Assembly: GCA_964629485.1 (NCBI GenBank)
Contig: CAZVRN010000001.1
Location: 1 to 27,326 of the forward strand
Direction: 5' to 3'
DNA length: 27,326 bases
DNA from: an uncultured Thermodesulfobacteriota bacterium
GTDB lineage: Bacteria > Desulfobacterota > Desulfarculia > Adiutricales > JAFDHD01
Positions 151 to 8,471 of the stretch are shown here, piece by piece (positions within the stretch are counted from its first letter, which is position 1; every line of letters starts with the position of its first letter). The translations under genes and the position numbers were made by a program. The notes beneath the pieces are model-generated. The model was not told the DNA's origin. It saw nothing but the letters and a program-made list of their open reading frames with translations, and did not search any database.

Positions 151-1041
151 TTAAACCCTCTCTATGCGGGCAGTCCCGAAAAGCCCGTAAGGACGTATGA
201 AAAGCACTATTAACATCAGAATATAGGTGGCAACATCCTTGAAGCCGATCAGCCCCATGGGTTCTATGTAGGCGGCTACAAGGGTTTCAAATATTCCGAT
301 TATGATTCCGGCGACTAAAGCCCCGGCAACACTATTGATCCCCCCGATGATAACCACGGGGATGGCCCTGAATCCCACCAGTGCTGATGAAGGAGAGAGA
401 ATCCCGAAGTTAGATATCATGACCCCGGCAACGGCTATGCAGCTTGAGCTAACCCCCCAGCTTATCAGTAGAATAAAGCGGGCATTGATGCCAAAGGCCG
501 TGGCTTTGGCCTGGTTCTCTGAGACAGCTCGAATGGCTAAACCCCAACGGGTTCGAAAGAGAGCAGCCATAACTAAAGCAAATGTTAATAAAGATAAAAT
601 CCCGGCCCAGATTTGTTCCGACAGGTAGAACAAACCTCTTGCCTCCAGCTTGATATCCGGCAAACCTAAAGGCTGCCAGCCTGGAGAGCCGGCATAGTTA
701 AGAGTGAAATTAATCAATGCGCTCAAAAAGAAATATAACCCGAGGGTTACCTTGGTCATTAATATTGGATCCAGGCCAAGGAGAGGCTTGATGGTCAGTC
801 GTTCAATGATCGCCCCCATGGCTCCGGCAGCCAGTAATCCTAAGGGCAGGGCCAGAAGCAAGGGGAGGTTAAAAGCGACAAACATTGTATAAAAAAGATA
901 TGAACCAATGACGAGAAATTGTCCGACGGCGAAATTAAATGCTTCTGAAGCCTTGTATATTATAACAATGGAAAGACCTAAAAGGGCGTAAATGAAGCCC
1001 ACTAACGTTCCGGAGCCGATGGCCTGAATAAAATCGATCAT
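151..1041 (-). CDS. Branched-chain amino acid ABC transporter permease (LivH-like)
   Basis: 296 aa, hydrophobic throughout. N-terminal 'G..YALLGLSIVIIYKASEAFNFAVG', the EAA-like loop 'TRWGLAIRAVSENQAKATAFGIN', and the C-terminal 'VLFIRPYGLFG' are typical of LivH-family permeases. Confidence 0.9.
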   Translation of the reverse strand: MIDFIQAIGSGTLVGFIYALLGLSIVIIYKASEAFNFAVGQFLVIGSYLFYTMFVAFNLPLLLALPLGLLAAGAMGAIIERLTIKPLLGLDPILMTKVTLGLYFFLSALINFTLNYAGSPGWQPLGLPDIKLEARGLFYLSEQIWAGILSLLTFALVMAALFRTRWGLAIRAVSENQAKATAFGINARFILLISWGVSSSCIAVAGVMISNFGILSPSSALVGFRAIPVVIIGGINSVAGALVAGIIIGIFETLVAAYIEPMGLIGFKDVATYILMLIVLFIRPYGLFGTARIERV

Positions 1042-1105: not shown

Positions 1106-2830
1106 TTAATCTCTCTCCCGTGTCAATTCGGAGATGGTCGAAATTTGAGAACGGATATCCTGCCTGAGCCGGTTTATGTCGCTTAGTACGGCGTCTATTT
1201 TTTCTTCCCAGATTTTTGTCAGTTCCCCTTTGAGAGATTTTAATATTTTTTTGGCCGCCGCTTCGGAACGTTTTTTGCCGCGGCGGTAGAAACGAAAGGC
1301 GAAAAAAAGATTGAGCAGGGCGAAGCTGCTCAGGGCGGCCAGCCCCCTGGAACTGAAAATAGTCTCCACGCTTGCCGCGATCAAACCGATAAGGCTGGAA
1401 ATTCCGGGATTGTCGAGAAGTCTTTGCCATGCCTCCTGCCCGCCGATGGCAAATAAAAAGAAAACCAGGATGAGCAGATATGTGACGGTTTGCAGAATCT
1501 TGTGACCCCAGAACCGGGGTTGACCGCCTTCCGCGAGCCACATGGCGCTAAACCGGGTGAAATGGTCCTTCAATTCTTCCATTATTTTTGAAATATCAAA
1601 AGCCTCTTCTAACTGCTCCCTGGCTGCTGAGGGTAAATTATGGTGAAGCATGAGGCGGCTGAGCCTGTCCTGAAGCCACTGAAGCCGCCTTTGAAAGAAG
1701 ACTGCAATTTCATCCGGAATTGAAATAGCGGCAACCCCTGATTGGGGTCTTTCCCCCTGCGACCGTTTTGACCACCCCTGAAAGAGAAGGCCGACCAGAT
1801 AGCCGGGGCCGATAAGCTGGGCCGGCTCCCATTGTTCCAACAGAATATGCGGTTTGATGTAATTATTTAACCATAAGTCAAACGCTTCCTCCCCGGACTT
1901 AACCCAGGCCGGACGCTGTTCATTTACCTCGGCGAGGGTGCTTTCAAGAATTTTTTCAAATGTCTCCAAATTCGATATTTCCCGCTGAAATACGGAGAGA
2001 AGCCGCTTAACCTCAACGTCCAGGTTGGCCGTCTTGATGGCCGCGATTTGTTTCATGTCCCTTTGCTGAAAAATCTGGTTTCTGAACGCGGGGAACTGGT
2101 TCCATGGTTCCGGAGGCTCGGAATCCAGGATTTTTTTGGCCGAAATCACAAAGAGAAGCGGTTCCTCAATTCCGTTGTCACGGATAAGGTCCTGATAGCT
2201 TTTTGCAACCCGCCCTAGCTCCTCATAACCATTGCCGCCGGTCTCGTGCGAGAAAAAGATGTCTGCCTTGTTCAGGACAAAATAAAAATTCTGCCTGGCC
2301 TTGGGCACCATCCGCATAAATTCGTATGTGATTTTATCCGCGTATTTCTCCGGGGAAGTGACCCAGACCAATACATCCAGGTACTCCAGAAAATTAAGAA
2401 CACGCTCCCTGTGCGCGGCCATGAGGCTGTCGAAATCCGGGAGGTCGCACAGCAGGATGTGCCGGATGGCGTCGGCTTCATGCGTAATCTCTGACCAGGG
2501 AACGTCCTTTAACGCTGGACCCGGGATTTGATTCATGGCCGCGTGCCTGTAAATAAGAACCTGGTCGGTATGGGGCCGCCGGTCACTGGTGGAGGCTATC
2601 TCAGAACCGGCCAGGGCGTTCATCAGAGATGATTTGCCCACGCCGGTTCCGCCGAGCAGGCCGATTGTGAGTCTGCTGCCTTCAAGATCGGCCAGGTTCT
2701 GTGAAAGCTTGTTCGCCTTGGCCTTGAATTCTTCCTGTTCCTCAGGCGACAGGGAAAACAGGGCGGGCTGATCTAAAAGATCACGCGCCTGGTCAAGCTT
2801 ATGCGCAAGCTGCTGAATGGGATGTTTCAT
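1106..2830 (-). CDS. Dynamin-like / Era-like GTPase with two C-terminal transmembrane helices
   Basis: G1 GGTGVGKS, G2 RPHT, G3 DLPDFDS, VTSPEKYAD and G4 NKAD, followed by a long helical region. Two hydrophobic segments (VTYLLILVFFLFAIGG; GLAALSSFALLNLFFAF) are followed by basic RFYRRGKKR. Start overlaps the upstream gene's stop by 4 bp (ATGA). Confidence 0.8.
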   Translation of the reverse strand: MKHPIQQLAHKLDQARDLLDQPALFSLSPEEQEEFKAKANKLSQNLADLEGSRLTIGLLGGTGVGKSSLMNALAGSEIASTSDRRPHTDQVLIYRHAAMNQIPGPALKDVPWSEITHEADAIRHILLCDLPDFDSLMAAHRERVLNFLEYLDVLVWVTSPEKYADKITYEFMRMVPKARQNFYFVLNKADIFFSHETGGNGYEELGRVAKSYQDLIRDNGIEEPLLFVISAKKILDSEPPEPWNQFPAFRNQIFQQRDMKQIAAIKTANLDVEVKRLLSVFQREISNLETFEKILESTLAEVNEQRPAWVKSGEEAFDLWLNNYIKPHILLEQWEPAQLIGPGYLVGLLFQGWSKRSQGERPQSGVAAISIPDEIAVFFQRRLQWLQDRLSRLMLHHNLPSAAREQLEEAFDISKIMEELKDHFTRFSAMWLAEGGQPRFWGHKILQTVTYLLILVFFLFAIGGQEAWQRLLDNPGISSLIGLIAASVETIFSSRGLAALSSFALLNLFFAFRFYRRGKKRSEAAAKKILKSLKGELTKIWEEKIDAVLSDINRLRQDIRSQISTISELTRERD

Positions 2831-4596
2831 GCTTTAACTTCCTTCTCCAGCTTTTCTATTTCACGGCGGACCTCTTCTATGGATTTCAATGCCTCCGGGG
2901 TTGTCACCTGAGATTGAAGGCACTCTTCATACCGGTCTCGCTGGTGACGCACCACCGCCAGAAAACCTTCCTGGTAGCGTTCGGCCAGTTCATGAGCGAT
3001 TTTTCGAATTTCATTGTAAGCGAAAAGCTCCACCGCGCCCCGGGTTACAACGGGAGCCAGAGCGGAATCCAGGGCCGCGTCTATAATACTGAACCCACCG
3101 CCGAGAACGGTTTCAAGCGATAAAATAAGGACCCCCCAGAGAACAGAGGTGGAATAAATTCCCCATTCCTTGGTTTTAGGAATGCCTTTCGACAAGTCTT
3201 CAAATGTTTCTTCGAGCCAGACCACGACCTTTTCCTGCTCCTGGCCGATCCGCTCCTTAATTTCCTGATCCGTGAGGATGACGTCCGGCTGACGAAGTCT
3301 CTTGAAAAGCGGGGCTGCGTTATCGGCAGGCGATAATTCTTCAAGCACCAGGCGGTTGAATTTCTCCAGAACGGCCTGAACAGGAGAGAGGTTGATTTTT
3401 TCCTGAATTTTCAGAAGCGCCTCTTGAGAGGAACCGGGAATGCGTTCCCGGCCAAGGCTGAGAATTTTGAAAGGGGCCAGGATAATGTCTCTTAATATTC
3501 TGCGCGGTTTGGATAAAACATCGTATTTGGCAAAGAGCTTTCTGATTTCTTTTTGAAGATGCTCCCTGCTTTCCGCGGCAAAACGCGCTTTCTGCTCTTC
3601 CAGAAGATCCTGGCAAGCCTTTTGATAAAGCGCTTCAAGCCTCTTCTTCCAGGCTTCAGCCGCCTGGTTTTCTTCTTTAAGCAGACTAAGGAGCCTGCTT
3701 AGCCGATTCTTCAGATCCCCGGCCCGCCTGGAACATTCCGTCTCATGAAATTTTTTCAGGCCCTTTGTTGAAAGCAACCGGGTAAGTTGATCCTTGAAAT
3801 TGCGAAAGGACGGATCTTTTGAAATTGACGAAAACGGGTCTGAAGAAGCCCTGGGAATAAGCCACAGCCGGTCTTGATTGACAGAAATTCGATGGTTCGA
3901 TAAAGTCTGCGTCACTTCCCGGCTGGTGAGCCGCCCCTGGGCTTTATTAAGAAGAAGAAAATACGGCTTTCCTTCGGATACGATTTTTTGCAGGAACCGA
4001 TAAGGCACATCGTCTGCGTATTTTTCCTCGCTGGTGACAAAGACGACCAGATCGGACAAAAGATAGAGGTCTTCGGCGATTTGCCGGTTTTTTACTTCAA
4101 CGCTGTCCAAGTCCGGGGTGTCCGCCACGATAAGATGGGACCATTCCTCAAGGTCGTGTTCCAGGACGATCAGCCGTCCCGGGCTTCCGCTGACCGGGCC
4201 CGGGTCAAGATCCCCCAACGCACGCCGTTCAATCTTTACAGAAGGAATGGGGAAATCCCTTTCAACGGGCCAGTCTTTATAAGCGTAAATAATCGGGCCG
4301 AAAGTTTTAGGCCGCTCCATACCTGTTTCACTGAGCCGTTTCCCGCAAAAAGCATTAAACAGGGTGGATTTCCCCGTACCGGTCCCTCCGGTGAAGACAA
4401 TCCAAAGCGTCTCCATGGACAGCTTGTAATAGAAAACATCCAGCCGTTTCGGCAGGTCTTGGGCCAGCTTTTCAATTTCCCGGGCGCCCGGGGTGAGTCC
4501 GGGCCACCGGAAGCCGTCCATGAATGACCGGCCGTGGCGAGATAAATCCTGAGAATCCTGTCCTTCTTTAGGCAATGTTTTTTTCATAACACCCAT
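2827..4596 (-). CDS. Dynamin-like GTPase (paralog of the downstream gene)
   Basis: G1 GGTGTGKS, G2 RPKT, G3 DTPDLDS, VTSEEKYAD and G4 NKAQ, then a long charged helical stalk and a hydrophobic patch (VLWGVLILSLETVLGGGFSII) near the C-terminus. An alternative start is possible at 4587. Confidence 0.8.
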   Translation of the reverse strand: MGVMKKTLPKEGQDSQDLSRHGRSFMDGFRWPGLTPGAREIEKLAQDLPKRLDVFYYKLSMETLWIVFTGGTGTGKSTLFNAFCGKRLSETGMERPKTFGPIIYAYKDWPVERDFPIPSVKIERRALGDLDPGPVSGSPGRLIVLEHDLEEWSHLIVADTPDLDSVEVKNRQIAEDLYLLSDLVVFVTSEEKYADDVPYRFLQKIVSEGKPYFLLLNKAQGRLTSREVTQTLSNHRISVNQDRLWLIPRASSDPFSSISKDPSFRNFKDQLTRLLSTKGLKKFHETECSRRAGDLKNRLSRLLSLLKEENQAAEAWKKRLEALYQKACQDLLEEQKARFAAESREHLQKEIRKLFAKYDVLSKPRRILRDIILAPFKILSLGRERIPGSSQEALLKIQEKINLSPVQAVLEKFNRLVLEELSPADNAAPLFKRLRQPDVILTDQEIKERIGQEQEKVVVWLEETFEDLSKGIPKTKEWGIYSTSVLWGVLILSLETVLGGGFSIIDAALDSALAPVVTRGAVELFAYNEIRKIAHELAERYQEGFLAVVRHQRDRYEECLQSQVTTPEALKSIEEVRREIEKLEKEVKA

Positions 4597-4610
4597 GTTA
4601 AAACAAGTTT

Positions 4611-4619
4611 ACTATACCA
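4611..4619 (-). promoter_or_regulatory. Possible extended -10 promoter (TGGTATAGT) for the GTPase pair
   Basis: Minus strand reads TG-G-TATAGT, ending 14 nt before the ATG at 4596. There is no good -35. Confidence 0.3.
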
Positions 4620-4751
4620 GTAATGCCTGTGGCCGGGCCAAATAAATTTTCCAAACGTGAAAAGAAGTTCTTAAAAACCGGTTTCCCTCTTTCACTGCGG
4701 CGCCCAAGGACAGGAAAAAGCTTATGGGGGACCGGGCAGAAATGAAGATAA

Positions 4752-4825
4752 GAGACCTTTGCAAAATTTCGTCCTTTGACTGATTTGGGTCAGGCTTCCG
4801 AGTAGTCATTACAACATTATTGTCG
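4752..4825 (-). mobile_element. Miniature inverted-repeat element, copy A (diverged, one end eroded)
   Basis: GAGACCTTTGCAAAATTTCGTCCTTTGACTGA...GTCAGGCTTCCG...ACAACATTATTGTCG aligns by eye with the reverse complement of the copy at 18534-18620. Confidence 0.6.
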
Positions 4826-4840
4826 GATTATAAAATCAAT

Positions 4841-4856
4841 ATTACAAAAATGTAAT
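4841..4856. promoter_or_regulatory. Perfect palindrome ATTACA-N4-TGTAAT, candidate operator
   Basis: Read directly in the AT-rich spacer between the divergent GTPase operon and the amt remnant. Confidence 0.25.
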
Positions 4857-4928
4857 TTTAAATTCGCCGTTTCTGCTTTTATTTTTTACGGTATTATAAC
4901 TAATTGACTTTTATAATCAAATTATCGA

Positions 4929-5447
4929 ATGACAACGGGTCTTGCTCCGCACCCTTTTTATGCACCCACGGTGCCGCATCAGGCTTTCATGATTTTTCAA
5001 TGCATGTTCGCGGTAATCACCCCGGCCCTTATTACCGGGGCCTTTGCCGAAAGAATGCGTTTCGGGCCTTTATCCGCGGCCCTGATCGGCATCCTGGCCG
5101 GAGCCGGCTGTTACCTGGGTATCCTGATCAAGAACAAGTTCGGATATGACGACAGCTTCGACGTGGTCGGTATTCATGGTGTCGGGGAGGTGATCGGGTT
5201 GCTTTGCGTAGGGCTTTTAGCCAGCAGCCTGGTCAATCCCGGTGGGGCGAACGGGTTGTTTTTCGGGAATCCGGCACAACTGGTCCTTCAGCTCTTGGCC
5301 ATTTTGGTTACGATGGCTTATTCTTTTATTGGAACCTATATCTTGCTTAAACTGGTCGATCAAATTTTGGGACTGAGACTTACTGAAAGTGATGAGATTC
5401 AGGGATTGGATTTAAGCCAGCATAAAGAGGTGGCATATGAAATTTAA
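4929..5447 (+). pseudogene. amtB: Ammonium transporter (Amt) remnant: 5'-truncated, with an in-frame central deletion
   Basis: YAPTVPHQAFMIFQCMFAVITPALITGAFAERMRF (early Amt helix) is fused directly to GPLSAALIGILAG..CY..KNKFGYDDSFDVVGIHGVG...GLDLSQHKEVAY (C-terminal Amt helices). It is only 172 aa, versus about 400 aa for intact Amt. Confidence 0.85.
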
Positions 5448-5452
5448 CTGGA

Positions 5453-5503
5453 AAAACCCCTTAAGAACCAGTAATTTTTAGGACTAAGTTCTTAAGGGGT
5501 CTC
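5453..5503 (+). mobile_element. Miniature inverted-repeat element, copy E (51-bp short form)
   Basis: 13-bp perfect inverted repeat ACCCCTTAAGAAC / GTTCTTAAGGGGT. The interior GTAATTTTT-AGGACTAAG corresponds to the two ends of the longer copies. Confidence 0.65.
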
Positions 5504-5551
5504 AAAGTACCCGTTGATTTTGTTTTTAAATTACAATCACCGCAGAAGATA

Positions 5552-6307
5552 TTAACTTAAAAATCTTTTTTTCAAGCCGAGCAGCCCGACAGAACCCGAA
5601 AACAAGAGCCATATGGCGCCCGGAATGGGAACGGCTGGTATTTTTTCATAGATGACATCATTGGCGCAGTTTATGGTCCACCCGAGAATGATGGCATTAC
5701 CACCTGTGTCAATATTCAGCCCGGCCCAGTAAATATAATATAACCCGTCTCCTTCCAGCGTACCGGGCATGTCATCCGAAAAGGTTACTCCATGAAGTTC
5801 TTCCAGGTCTGTGTTGCCGGGTATGATATTTACGGGATGGTATTTTCTCGGCGTACCGCTCCAGACCCACGTGTCATTGGAATATTCGTAATAGTCAGGT
5901 TTTACAGGAGAATAGGTCCCGAGTGCTATGGGAGAACCACCCGATTTGATACCCCACAATGCCTGGCCCCCGGTAGCCGATTCATGAACCACGTAATCCC
6001 ATGTCTGGTCGGCATTAATATCGATAAAGAGGTCGCCTGCAGCTAAGTGCTGTAAAAGAGAGTTGGTATTGTCGTACCATTTCATACCGATCGCCACGTC
6101 GGTCAGTGTCGCGCCGGAAAAATCAACTCTCCCGCCTTTGAACTTAGGGACTCCGTTTTCATCTGTATTGTCTATTGAGGATGTTTGCCCGGGGTAGCCC
6201 GGCCAGTAAATGGTATTGTCACTAAATGAAACCGTGGATGCTTGCGCTTGAACAACTATAAATAATAATATAGTTAGAAAAATCGTCGCTATGGCCAATT
6301 TTTTCAT
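5552..6307 (-). CDS. PEP-CTERM / VPLPA-CTERM-type exosortase-target surface protein
   Basis: Signal peptide MKKLAIATIFLTILLFIVVQAQA, with a GGAG RBS before the ATG at 6307 (preferred over the 6349 start). C-terminal sorting signal VPIPGAIWLLFSGSVGLLGLKKRFLS (motif, TM helix, basic cluster). Confidence 0.85.
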   Translation of the reverse strand: MKKLAIATIFLTILLFIVVQAQASTVSFSDNTIYWPGYPGQTSSIDNTDENGVPKFKGGRVDFSGATLTDVAIGMKWYDNTNSLLQHLAAGDLFIDINADQTWDYVVHESATGGQALWGIKSGGSPIALGTYSPVKPDYYEYSNDTWVWSGTPRKYHPVNIIPGNTDLEELHGVTFSDDMPGTLEGDGLYYIYWAGLNIDTGGNAIILGWTINCANDVIYEKIPAVPIPGAIWLLFSGSVGLLGLKKRFLS

Positions 6308-6953
6308 CGCCAATCTCCCTTCGGTTGGCAGTAGATATTGGATAAACACTACTTTTTTAAAAATACATAATTACTAATACAGACTATATTAACGAGTTTT
6401 ATCAAGTCAATACGCCGAAAGTACTATTTTTATAAATATTTTCTCATACTTTTTTCCTAGTTTTAATCTTGCCTGGAACTTAAATTCCGCTGATTTCCCC
6501 AAATTCAGGATGTTTTTTCAGCACCAAACAGGAGGCAAAAAAGCCCGGGGTTTTGGCCTGTGCAGCCGTATTGCTTCTGCGGGAAGGGCTTCTTTTTAGC
6601 GGCCTATCCTGTGTCGAAAAAATCTGTGCTAATGACCTAACTAATTAATTTAATTAATTTTTGATAAAAGTTTCGTTCGGAGATGGCTTGATTTGTAACA
6701 GCGCCTTCATGGCCGGAAGCTGCATAATGATTGACCCCAAGCGGCTTGATGTATTACTATGCCGGGGAATCATCTGTCATGTGAGCGCAGGATCGCCATT
6801 GTCAGGCGGACAAATTTTTTGAGCGCCCTGATATAGAGCGACCAAGTGCATTAAACGGGGTGAGAGGAACTGAAAATCATTAAACCGTGCCTCTTTTCAG
6901 TGCATCCCCGCCATAGTCAAAACCATTAATTATTTTAAGGAGATGAAACGACC

Positions 6954-8471
6954 ATGGAAAATGATTATATCGTTGAAACGTCAAATGGCAAGGTGCGCGG
7001 TTACAGTAAAAAAGGCATTATAAAGTTTAAAGGCATCCCTTACGCCGCGCCTCCTGTTGGAGACCTCCGTTTCAGGCCCCCGGCCCCGGCGGAGCCGTGG
7101 ACCGGGGTGCGGGACGCGCTGGAGTACAGCCCGATAGTGCCTCAGCCGGCCGGCGCCGTGGAATCCCTGTTTGGCGAACAGAGGGAACAAAACGAGGCTG
7201 AATGTTTAACCTTGAACATCTGGACCCGGGCCGTTGACGACCAGAAGCGGCCTGTCATGTTTTTTATTCACGGGGGTGGTTTTGTAACCGGGACCGGCGC
7301 TTCGCTGGAAGGCTCGCGCCTCGTTTTGAGGGGCGATGTGGTCGTGGTGAGCATCAACTACAGGCTGGGGTCGCTCGGGTTTTTGTACATGCCCGATGTG
7401 CCCGAGGCTGCGTCAAATATCGGGCTGCTCGACATGGCCGCCGCGCTGGAATTCGTGAAAAGAAATATTTCCCGCTTTGGCGGAGACCCGGATAACGTCA
7501 CCATTTTCGGGGAATCGGCCGGCGGCTTTGCCGTGGCCGGCCTGCTTGCCATGCCTGCCGTCAAGGGGTTATTCCACCGCGCTATTTTGCAGTCAGGCGC
7601 GGCGCATCCCCTGGGGTTCAACGCCAGGGCCGGAATAAATGTTTATCATCGTCTCCTGGAAGAATTGGGCATTCAAAAAGGCGATATAGAAGCCCTGCGC
7701 AGGGTTCCGGCTGAAGACATTATTAAAGCCCAGACAGCTATTATGCCCGTGGCCAGCGGTGATTTCGCCACGGAACGGCCCCTTAGGTTGGGGCCCGTGG
7801 TGGATAAGGAAACCCTGCCCGAACACCCGCTGGAGGCTTTGCGAAACGGTTTTGCCAAAGAAATAAGCGTCTTTGTCGGCTCCAACCTCGACGAGACAAA
7901 ATTGTGGCATATCTGGAATCCCGACGCGTATAAAATTGATGAAGACGGGTTGCTCAAGGGAGTAAACGGCGTCGTGTCCCTTGTGGGAAAGGATGAAAGT
8001 AAAGCCCGGGAAATGATTGAAGTATACAGGCAGAAACGAAAAACTCCGCGAGATATCATGGATGCGGTTTCCACGGATTACATGTTCCGCATTCCGTCTA
8101 TCCGCCTGGCCGAAGCACAAAGCGCACATCAAAAAAATACTTACATGTACCTTTTTACGTGGCAAAGCCCGCTGGCAGGAGGCAAGTACGGGGCCATGCA
8201 CGCCCTGGAGCTCGGCTTTGTTTTCGGAGTCCTTCAGCAAAAGGCGGTCGGCATCTTCCCCGAGAGAAATGAAGAAACCGAGGCCCTCAGCGAGGCCATG
8301 ATGGATACCTGGATATCGTTCGCCAGGAATGGAAACCCGAATAACGCCGGCATCCCGCCGTTTCCGCCGTATGATACTGAAAAAAGGGCGACCATTATCT
8401 TTGATAAAGAAATAAAAATCGTCGAAGACCCGTATGGCCACGAACGAGCTGTCTGGAGTGATCTGCTGTGA
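6954..8471 (+). CDS. Type-B carboxylesterase/lipase (PnbA-like)
   Basis: FKGIPYAAPPVGDLRFRPP, ECLTLNIW, oxyanion HGGGF, nucleophile GESAG, acid GSNLDET and GAMHALE His. AAGGAG RBS present. Confidence 0.95.
   Translation: MENDYIVETSNGKVRGYSKKGIIKFKGIPYAAPPVGDLRFRPPAPAEPWTGVRDALEYSPIVPQPAGAVESLFGEQREQNEAECLTLNIWTRAVDDQKRPVMFFIHGGGFVTGTGASLEGSRLVLRGDVVVVSINYRLGSLGFLYMPDVPEAASNIGLLDMAAALEFVKRNISRFGGDPDNVTIFGESAGGFAVAGLLAMPAVKGLFHRAILQSGAAHPLGFNARAGINVYHRLLEELGIQKGDIEALRRVPAEDIIKAQTAIMPVASGDFATERPLRLGPVVDKETLPEHPLEALRNGFAKEISVFVGSNLDETKLWHIWNPDAYKIDEDGLLKGVNGVVSLVGKDESKAREMIEVYRQKRKTPRDIMDAVSTDYMFRIPSIRLAEAQSAHQKNTYMYLFTWQSPLAGGKYGAMHALELGFVFGVLQQKAVGIFPERNEETEALSEAMMDTWISFARNGNPNNAGIPPFPPYDTEKRATIIFDKEIKIVEDPYGHERAVWSDLL

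Follow-up and report, generated by a model that had tools for sequence, protein, structure and literature searches.

A conserved gene pair for predicted membrane-anchored dynamin-like GTPases in Thermodesulfobacteriota and more distant phyla

Bacterial dynamin-like proteins (DLPs) are widespread, yet studies cover just a few of them (BDLP1, DynA, IniA/C, LeoABC, Cj-DLP1/2, and SynDLP), and their cellular roles are unclear. Among eukaryotic members of the dynamin superfamily, the mitofusins work as heterotypic isoform pairs. Most bacterial DLP genes are paired side by side in operons, and the products of such pairs have been proposed to form hetero-oligomers (PMC6104087, PMC4159319). Campylobacter jejuni DLP1/DLP2 (5owv/5oxf; PMC6104087), for example, are paralogous, non-identical, cytosolic proteins that bind lipid peripherally through their tip, and BDLP1 of Nostoc punctiforme (2j68/2j69) attaches transiently, in a nucleotide-dependent manner, through a hydrophobic paddle (PMC6104087). 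The MfnL family, described from Trypanosoma brucei (TbMfnL) and also represented by homologues in PVC bacteria and Proteobacteria, comprises proteins of ~60 kDa with a G domain, a helical region, and two consecutive C-proximal transmembrane helices, the termini lying on the same side (10.1101/2023.06.28.546890). Here, we analyzed a 27,326-nt window (the whole stretch of DNA under study; coordinates are positions within it unless another locus is named) of contig CAZVRN010000001.1 from an uncultured Thermodesulfobacteriota bacterium, in which two adjoining minus-strand genes, A and B, encode paralogous GTPases. That the locus encodes a membrane-anchored DLP pair is very probable; the fuller statement that includes function, namely that the pair is heterotypic and serves in the tethering, fusion, or repair of membrane, is one that we favor with moderate confidence.

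Gene structure and conservation of the pair

The upstream gene A (2827..4596, minus strand) encodes a dynamin-like GTPase of 589 amino acids (586 if counted from the Met at codon 4), and the downstream gene B (1106..2830, minus strand) encodes a second one of 574 amino acids. The stop codon of A and the start codon of B share bases within an ATGA overlap (2827..2830, minus strand), which is consistent with translational coupling of the two genes in the window. A first-pass annotation of this DNA had described two overlapping open reading frames (ORFs) of ~580 amino acids that share one motif series (GGTGxGKS, RPxT, DxPDxDS, VTSxEKYAD, LNKA); the sequence and its translation bore out the coordinates exactly, and every motif was found in A (GGTGTGKS, RPKT, DTPDLDS, VTSEEKYAD, LNKA) and in B (GGTGVGKS, RRPHT, DLPDFDS, VTSPEKYAD, LNKAD). 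Several hydrothermal-vent metagenomes contained the source organism at low coverage. Their contigs cross the two junctions of the pair, which shows that the A/B arrangement is not an assembly artifact.

That A and B are paralogues, as proposed at first pass, was evident far above chance from both BLASTP (26% identity over 275 amino acids, E 2e-20) and profile-profile comparison with hhalign (E 9e-26). The latter alignment takes in the G domain, the helix preceding it, and the first long stalk helix, and it detected no homology between the two distal trunks. Since the trunks have diverged past detection, paralogy is shown for only about the first 55% of the proteins.

Full-length homologues (~575-590 amino acids, 45-78% identity) number in the hundreds for each protein, the named ones being labeled as Desulfobacteraceae, Thermodesulfobacteriota, or Deltaproteobacteria metagenome-assembled genomes (MAGs), and the contigs that carry A homologues match in length those that carry B homologues. 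When 1.84 billion cluster representatives were searched by profile, 280 clusters were returned at E <= 1e-30 and ~2,100 at E <= 1e-10. A scan of GTDB species representatives yielded 80 loci, whose ORFs were then scored by the A and B profiles. Gene A preceded gene B on one strand in all 32 Thermodesulfobacteriota loci that had both genes at full length, the carriers in this phylum belonging to Desulfobacterales, Desulfatiglandales, Syntrophobacterales (including the cultured Desulfoferrobacter suflitae), Syntrophales-type MAGs, and Desulfohalobiaceae. Pairs more distantly related, in the same gene order, were encoded by Planctomycetota (Gemmataceae and others), Fimbriimonadaceae (Armatimonadota), and Proteobacteria. 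The gammaproteobacterial branch includes a cultured methanotroph, Methylocaldum szegediense, on whose complete chromosome (OX458333.1; locus L084, 5135-8677) an A-like gene (620 amino acids) and a B-like gene (558 amino acids) are separated by 3 nt and flanked by genes for rubredoxin, a thioredoxin-reductase-like protein, and FtsK; the same B-like protein sequence was found on at least 16 contigs. Across 43 pairs, the median A-to-B spacing was 15 nt, with overlap in 11 and the 4-nt arrangement in 9. Pairwise identities among A orthologues tracked those among B orthologues (r = 0.92; Mantel 0/999), so A and B are inherited and diverge as a unit. The first-pass view of paired, operon-coupled genes thus holds well beyond the window, and the sequence comparisons indicate that the pair is ancient and mostly vertically inherited across several orders and phyla.

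A few loci depart from this layout. Nine Desulfomonilaceae-type MAGs (L038, L039, L041-L043, L045, L047, L048, and L051) form a singleton lineage with a B-like gene (~570-620 amino acids, DLPDFDS, NKxD) and no adjoining A-type gene. At locus L022 (5151-9740), A and B lie ~1.1 kb apart with one ORF of 266 amino acids between them, and at locus L035 (6278-9665), A is split into two ORFs of 353 and 212 amino acids by a frameshift or a sequencing error.

Fold, membrane elements, and family assignment

AlphaFold2 models built from 40-sequence alignments were of usable quality, with mean predicted local distance difference test (pLDDT) scores of 75.9 and 79.7 for A and B, respectively. Each contains a Ras-like G domain, and the domain orders are similar: for A, an N-terminal helix, the G domain, a stalk helix of ~85 residues, a helical trunk, a hydrophobic hairpin, and two C-terminal helices; for B, two N-terminal helices, the G domain, a stalk helix of ~75 residues, a trunk, a transmembrane hairpin, a basic patch, and one long C-terminal helix. 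Both models thus contain the helical neck and trunk of the BDLP/mitofusin class (one or two N-terminal helices, a post-G helix of 75-85 residues, and trunk plus long C-terminal helices), and in both the predicted hydrophobic hairpin precedes the C-terminal helix, the position of the trunk-tip membrane element of that class. As modeled, the succession of G domain, helical bundle, hydrophobic hairpin, and C-terminal helix is the BDLP/mitofusin layout. When searched against PDB with Foldseek, A matched BDLP best (2j69, 3.5e-10), followed by Drp1, IniA, Cj-DLP1/2, mitofusins, OPA1, and dynamin; B likewise matched BDLP best (2j68, 3.4e-8), followed by Cj-DLP1/2, LeoA (4aur), IniA, mitofusin, immunity-related GTPases (IRGs), and SynDLP. 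All significant matches belonged to the dynamin superfamily and aligned over more than 600 columns. The long helical stalks described at first pass are present in both models, and the structural neighbors found, BDLP and IniA among them, agree with its dynamin-like assignment.

Sequence libraries placed the proteins less sharply. In Pfam, A matched Dynamin_N (27.9 bits; cutoff 27) and MMR_HSR1, and B matched MMR_HSR1 and IIGP (25 bits; cutoff 24), the latter only briefly (best stretch, profile positions 131-205 of 375), with Dynamin_N at 25 bits falling under the cutoff of 27; the Dynamin_N and MMR_HSR1 matches anticipated at first pass were hence obtained, the former at or just below threshold. 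No NCBIfam model came near its cutoff for A or B: Era, Der, YsxC, MnmE, and HydF reached 16-33 bits (cutoffs, 116-380), their matches being confined to the P-loop region, LeoA/HP0731 reached 19.4 bits against 325, and DynA reached 38 against 1600. By these thresholds, A and B are placed in no curated named family (LeoA/HP0731, DynA, IIGP, Era, and others). PDB sequence and profile searches with A and B reached no characterized bacterial DLP, only IRGs, Mfn2, and generic P-loop GTPases; fold comparison supplied the assignment.

The source annotations ("GTP-binding protein EngB," "GTPase Era," and "50S ribosome-binding GTPase"), together with the Pfam MMR_HSR1 match, would make A and B ribosome-associated or classical small housekeeping GTPases of the Era, EngA/Der, or EngB type. 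Such an identity is highly improbable and is effectively refuted by the NCBIfam equivalog scores, by the ~300 additional residues of helical stalk and membrane hairpins, and by the dynamins found as structural neighbors.

The two proteins differ at their membrane ends. Hydropathy identified two hydrophobic blocks in B, at residues 439-472 (Kyte-Doolittle 19-residue mean, 2.3) and 476-515 (mean, ~1.6), which we read as a two-helix transmembrane hairpin: predicted transmembrane helix 1 (residues 445-464; 1439..1498, minus strand), modeled as a helix by AlphaFold2, and predicted transmembrane helix 2 (residues 497-515; 1286..1342, minus strand), preceded by a moderately hydrophobic helix at residues 476-492 and followed directly by the basic patch RRGKKR (1268..1285, minus strand). 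By the positive-inside rule, RRGKKR and the C-terminal helix would be cytoplasmic, and both termini would lie in the cytoplasm with a short periplasmic loop. The model and the hydropathy profile together give B a predicted mitofusin-like topology. Protein A has a single hydrophobic region of 38-40 residues (Kyte-Doolittle mean, ~1.7), a predicted hairpin at residues 478-517 (WGIYSTSVLWGVLILSLETVLGGGFSIIDAALDSALAPVV; 3046..3165, minus strand) that occupies the paddle-equivalent position between the trunk helices and the C-terminal helix. This hairpin, modeled with low pLDDT, is interrupted by an invariant GGG and is among the most conserved stretches of the protein in the 40-sequence family alignment. 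The distinction drawn at first pass, two transmembrane-type helices with a basic stop in B and one hydrophobic region in A, accordingly stands.

Compared with described systems, A and B share with Cj-DLP1/2 the side-by-side operon genes, the status of paralogous, non-identical DLPs, and a modeled BDLP-type G domain, neck, and trunk; Cj-DLP1/2 were among the best Foldseek matches to both and gave the highest full-length TM-scores (0.35-0.38). In contrast to this structural likeness, no sequence similarity between Cj-DLP1/2 and A or B was detectable with HMMs, and whereas the former are peripheral, B has a predicted integral two-helix anchor. BDLP1, the top Foldseek match of both proteins, shares their N-terminal helix, G domain, long neck and trunk helices, hydrophobic element near the C terminus, and returning helices at a sequence identity of only 12-14%; unlike its paddle, the hairpin of B has the hydropathy of true transmembrane helices. 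Mitofusins and Fzo1 resemble B in having a G domain, a helical bundle, two adjacent hydrophobic helices, and a C-terminal helix; mitofusin matches were many in Foldseek, and Mfn2 was the best dynamin-superfamily profile match in PDB for A (E 0.015). They are nonetheless eukaryotic proteins of the outer mitochondrial membrane, and we saw no sign of orthology. The best PDB sequence matches for the G domain of B were IRGs (Irga6/IIGP1, TGTP2, and IRGB10; E 6e-7 to 2e-5); these matches were restricted to the G domain and the preceding helix, with no full-length IIGP match, and IRGs are eukaryotic proteins of ~415 amino acids that lack transmembrane hairpins. In a literature search, no report of a dynamin-like protein from Desulfobacterota came to light, in agreement with the first-pass statement that no characterized example is known there.

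Nucleotide sites and proposed mechanism

The G1 motif (P-loop) reads GGTGTGKS in A (4366..4389) and GGTGVGKS in B (2630..2653), and the putative G2 motif (switch I) reads RPKT in A (4303..4314; R, P, and T invariant) and RRPHT in B (2567..2581), all on the minus strand; GGTGxGKS, the switch-I Thr of RPxT, and the G3 Asp are invariant in both families. The G3 motif itself is unusual. It reads DTPDLDS in A (4102..4122, minus strand), which aligns with DSPGID of Mfn2 and DTPGL of Der, and DLPDFDS in B (2426..2446, minus strand), which aligns with DLPGIGS of Irga6; because these alignments put DxPDxDS on DxxG, the Gly that normally touches the gamma-phosphate is Asp here. This DxPD is invariant in both 40-sequence family alignments, and a motif census of all loci counted it in 55 A-type and 77 B-type proteins, distant phyla included. 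To our knowledge, no characterized DLP has a G3 of this type. The G4 motif separates the two families: B has a canonical NKxD (NKAD; 2261..2272, minus strand) with N, K, and D invariant, whereas A reads NKAQ (3937..3948, minus strand), lacks the specificity Asp, and across its family keeps only N and K, the fourth position being D, E, Q, S, or G and the Gemmataceae A-types reading TKMR. Because G4 is canonical in B and relaxed in A, the two heads are not equivalent, and because, in addition, both carry DxPD, the nucleotide cycle is probably both asymmetric and mechanistically unusual. The same features set the pair apart from Cj-DLP1/2, which have neither DxPD in G3 nor the relaxed G4 of A, from mitofusins with their canonical DxxG, and from IRGs, whose G3 is DLPG.

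Among the Planctomycetota loci (L053 and L058-L082; Gemmataceae and others), the A-type proteins were far more degenerate, with a P-loop GGAGAGKS, a G3 DCPDMTT, a G4 TKMR, and no RPxT found, while the matching B-types were canonical (GGTGVGKS, RPTT, DTPDLDS, and NKWD). These A-type sequences are consistent with progressive decay of the nucleotide site of A.

The altered motifs admit another explanation, in which A and B are membrane-anchored nucleotide switches or scaffolds that hydrolyze little and organize division, secretion, or protein insertion instead of acting as mechano-enzymes. The invariant replacement of DxxG by DxPD in both paralogues and the relaxed G4 of A speak for it, as do the IRG-type GTPases that are the nearest sequence relatives of the head of B, the PpiD-like gene directly downstream in Syntrophobacterales-type loci, and FtsK near the Methylocaldum pair. 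We consider it unlikely, because the P-loop, the switch-I Thr, and the Mg-binding G3 Asp are invariant over very deep divergence, which argues for a working nucleotide cycle, because the modeled whole-protein fold and the membrane element at the tip are as in remodeling DLPs, and because no single partner gene is kept across lineages.

Our preferred account is a heterotypic pair of the BDLP/mitofusin class, produced from one operon and, in this window, by translationally coupled genes. In the mechanism that we propose, B would be permanently anchored in the cytoplasmic membrane by its two-helix hairpin, with head, stalk, and C-terminal helix in the cytoplasm, while the shorter conserved hairpin of A probably inserts monotopically or packs against that of B. 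By analogy with Cj-DLP1/2, B. subtilis DynA, IniA/IniC, and the mitofusins, A and B would assemble into hetero-oligomers in which nucleotide-driven dimerization of the G domains and a hinge movement may tether, bend, fuse, or reseal membrane. In such an assembly, B would probably be the guanine-specific catalytic head and A a regulatory head or one of relaxed specificity. The analyses establish how the genes are laid out, their paralogy, fold class, hydrophobic segments, conservation as a pair, co-divergence, and surroundings; the hetero-oligomer, the topology, the asymmetry of the nucleotide cycle, and the role in the cell are inferred.

Several points weigh against this account. The A/B family is experimentally uncharacterized throughout, and a search for RNA runs carrying the locus found none. 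At the sequence level, similarity to characterized DLPs is remote (best PDB profile matches, Mfn2 at E 0.015 for A and IRGs at 6e-7 for B). Foldseek TM-scores were low (0.2-0.4), so that they do not by themselves prove the same quaternary mechanism; low scores are usual for hinged multidomain proteins captured in differing open and closed states. The Gly-to-Asp change in G3 could mean that GTP hydrolysis is altered or absent. Finally, since the Desulfomonilaceae-type sub-lineage keeps only the B-like gene, the partner is not always required.

The MfnL family, compared here by its published description only, shares the architecture of B (574 amino acids, transmembrane hairpin at 445-515, C-terminal helix), and its taxonomic range overlaps that of the distant relatives of B in Planctomycetota and Gammaproteobacteria. 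The paper describing it mentions neither a paired partner gene nor a DxPD-type G3 (10.1101/2023.06.28.546890), no B-family cluster accession matched its list, and the best 120 homologue matches to a gammaproteobacterial B-like query contained bacterial proteins only. A wider proposal, possible though on balance doubtful, is that A and B represent an ancient cross-phylum clade of membrane-anchored heterodimeric DLPs marked by DxPDxDS, that B is the bacterial counterpart of MfnL, and that MfnL-type proteins began in an obligate two-gene machine as the partner of A, which, with its degenerate specificity motif and unconventional catalytic cycle, has so far gone unnoticed.

Genomic surroundings and significance

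The surroundings of the pair bear on a further claim of the first-pass annotation, that the genes are an antiphage (Eleos) lead next to a plastic islet. As an alternative to membrane remodeling, an Eleos-like (LeoA plus LeoBC) or DynA-like system would act on the membrane during phage infection. Like LeoA/LeoBC of enterotoxigenic Escherichia coli (ETEC; Eleos), A and B are a two-gene dynamin-like module in tandem; PADLOC profiles gave weak matches of partial coverage (A, LeoBC 29 bits [1.1e-7] and LeoA 19 bits; B, LeoBC 39 bits [1.7e-10] and LeoA 33 bits [1e-8]), LeoA (4aur) was among the Foldseek matches of B, and the G domain of B is nearest in sequence to the immunity-related IRG GTPases. 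A precedent is found in B. subtilis DynA, which contributes to phage defense (PMC12998192), and the flanks differ even in the closest relative (74-78% identity). We nevertheless judge this alternative quite improbable. The Leo matches are not only partial but stand at 19-39 bits where the A and B family profiles score >900, and the NCBIfam LeoA/HP0731 score is far under its cutoff. Among 140 neighboring ORFs at 26 loci, PADLOC returned only scattered generic matches, with no defense enrichment, no recurring defense partner, and no defense-island context; by Pfam, the neighbors are metabolic or housekeeping genes, and those that do recur in sub-lineages encode a B12-binding radical SAM protein, ADP-forming acetyl-CoA synthetase, a PpiD-like chaperone, IMPDH, and a histidine kinase, and FtsK stands near one pair. 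A tblastn search of plasmid and phage collections found no homologue of the pair, and Foldseek against viral structures matched giant-virus dynamins only, with no phage protein at E <= 0.001. Whole orders carry the pair, and its divergence follows taxonomy in a graded manner, as opposed to the patchiness typical of defense systems. Defense was set aside as the leading reading, and with no defense enrichment, no plasmid or phage copies, and only weak, partial Leo matches, the defense and plastic-islet readings are unsupported. By analogy with described DLPs, the pair points to membrane maintenance or remodeling rather than to dedicated immunity.

All-versus-all clustering of neighboring ORFs found no third component common to all lineages. 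The B12-binding radical SAM gene (~618 amino acids) lies upstream in eight loci from different orders (L003, L004, L015, L021, L027, L031, L037, and L051), radical SAM domains occurred in 11 of the 140 scanned neighbors, and a PpiD-like chaperone gene lies directly downstream in seven Syntrophobacterales-type loci (L008, L012, L021, L026, L032, L034, and L035); these recurrences may reflect either synteny by descent or a functional link.

In the window, an AT-rich intergenic region upstream of A (4597..4928, minus strand) holds two sigma-70-like promoter matches (4920-4893 and 4856-4827), which come from a consensus scan alone and are no proof of function. Downstream, a LivH-type ABC permease gene (151-1041, minus strand) shares the strand of B across a 64-nt spacer (1042-1105) that contains no terminator-like hairpin, and read-through from B into the transporter operon, with co-transcription of the LivH-type gene, is possible; in no other locus examined did a LivH-type gene adjoin the pair. 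The rest of the window, which encodes this permease, a carboxylesterase, LarA, RNase J, an acyltransferase, a response regulator, an acyl-CoA ligase, a biotin carboxylase, Rex, an aminotransferase, and an enoyl-CoA hydratase, is ordinary chromosome, unlike the pathogenicity or defense island of LeoA/LeoBC. No compositional anomaly was seen across the window, and no Rfam model matched within it.

Two elements of the supposed islet proved real. An amt remnant of 172 amino acids (4929-5447, plus strand) matched Pfam and NCBIfam models over only the C-terminal third of Amt (profile 274-399), and a short N-terminal stretch resembling an earlier Amt helix is joined straight to this part, so the gene appears to be both 5'-truncated and internally deleted. 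In three vent metagenomes, contigs cross the junction between the remnant and gene A; in one metagenome (X1), a single low-coverage contig follows the window sequence on the right side of ~4876 and runs leftward into unrelated sequence, which suggests a population variant with another neighbor at this point. The surface protein noted at first pass corresponds to an ORF of 265 amino acids (5552-6349, minus strand) with a signal peptide at its N terminus and, at its C terminus, a VPIPGAIWLLFSGSVGLLGLKKR tail that resembles a PEP-CTERM sorting signal; it had no Pfam, NCBIfam, or PADLOC match, and its product is probably exported or located at the cell surface. The lowest GC content of the window (0.417, at 6001-7000) adjoins this ORF. 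A third element, a repeat near the locus, did not materialize, as only short, chance-level repeats occur in 4400-7000. The tie between the gene pair and a plastic islet is likewise not sustained, given ordinary chromosomal surroundings and a pair that appears ancient and mostly vertically inherited across orders and phyla.

Together, these analyses correct an attractive but unsupported reading of the locus as a defense system and describe a family that has no curated model and that databases misname as ribosome-binding or Era/EngB GTPases. Pairing is expected of bacterial DLPs, so the pair as such would cause a specialist no great surprise; its breadth, the asymmetry of its heads, and the possible tie to MfnL are still worthwhile. 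The two-gene unit is conserved across Thermodesulfobacteriota and, beyond that phylum, occurs in Planctomycetota, methanotrophic Gammaproteobacteria, and Armatimonadota, and it joins a predicted mitofusin-like integral anchor, a Gly-to-Asp change in the G3 of both heads, and a relaxed G4 Asp in one. The family may thereby offer a natural system for studying the division of labor between the two heads of heterotypic DLP pairs, and its cultured carriers, Methylocaldum szegediense (a possible model) and Desulfoferrobacter suflitae, make it experimentally reachable. If the link to MfnL were true, the pair would also bear on the origin of a mitochondrial inner-membrane dynamin.

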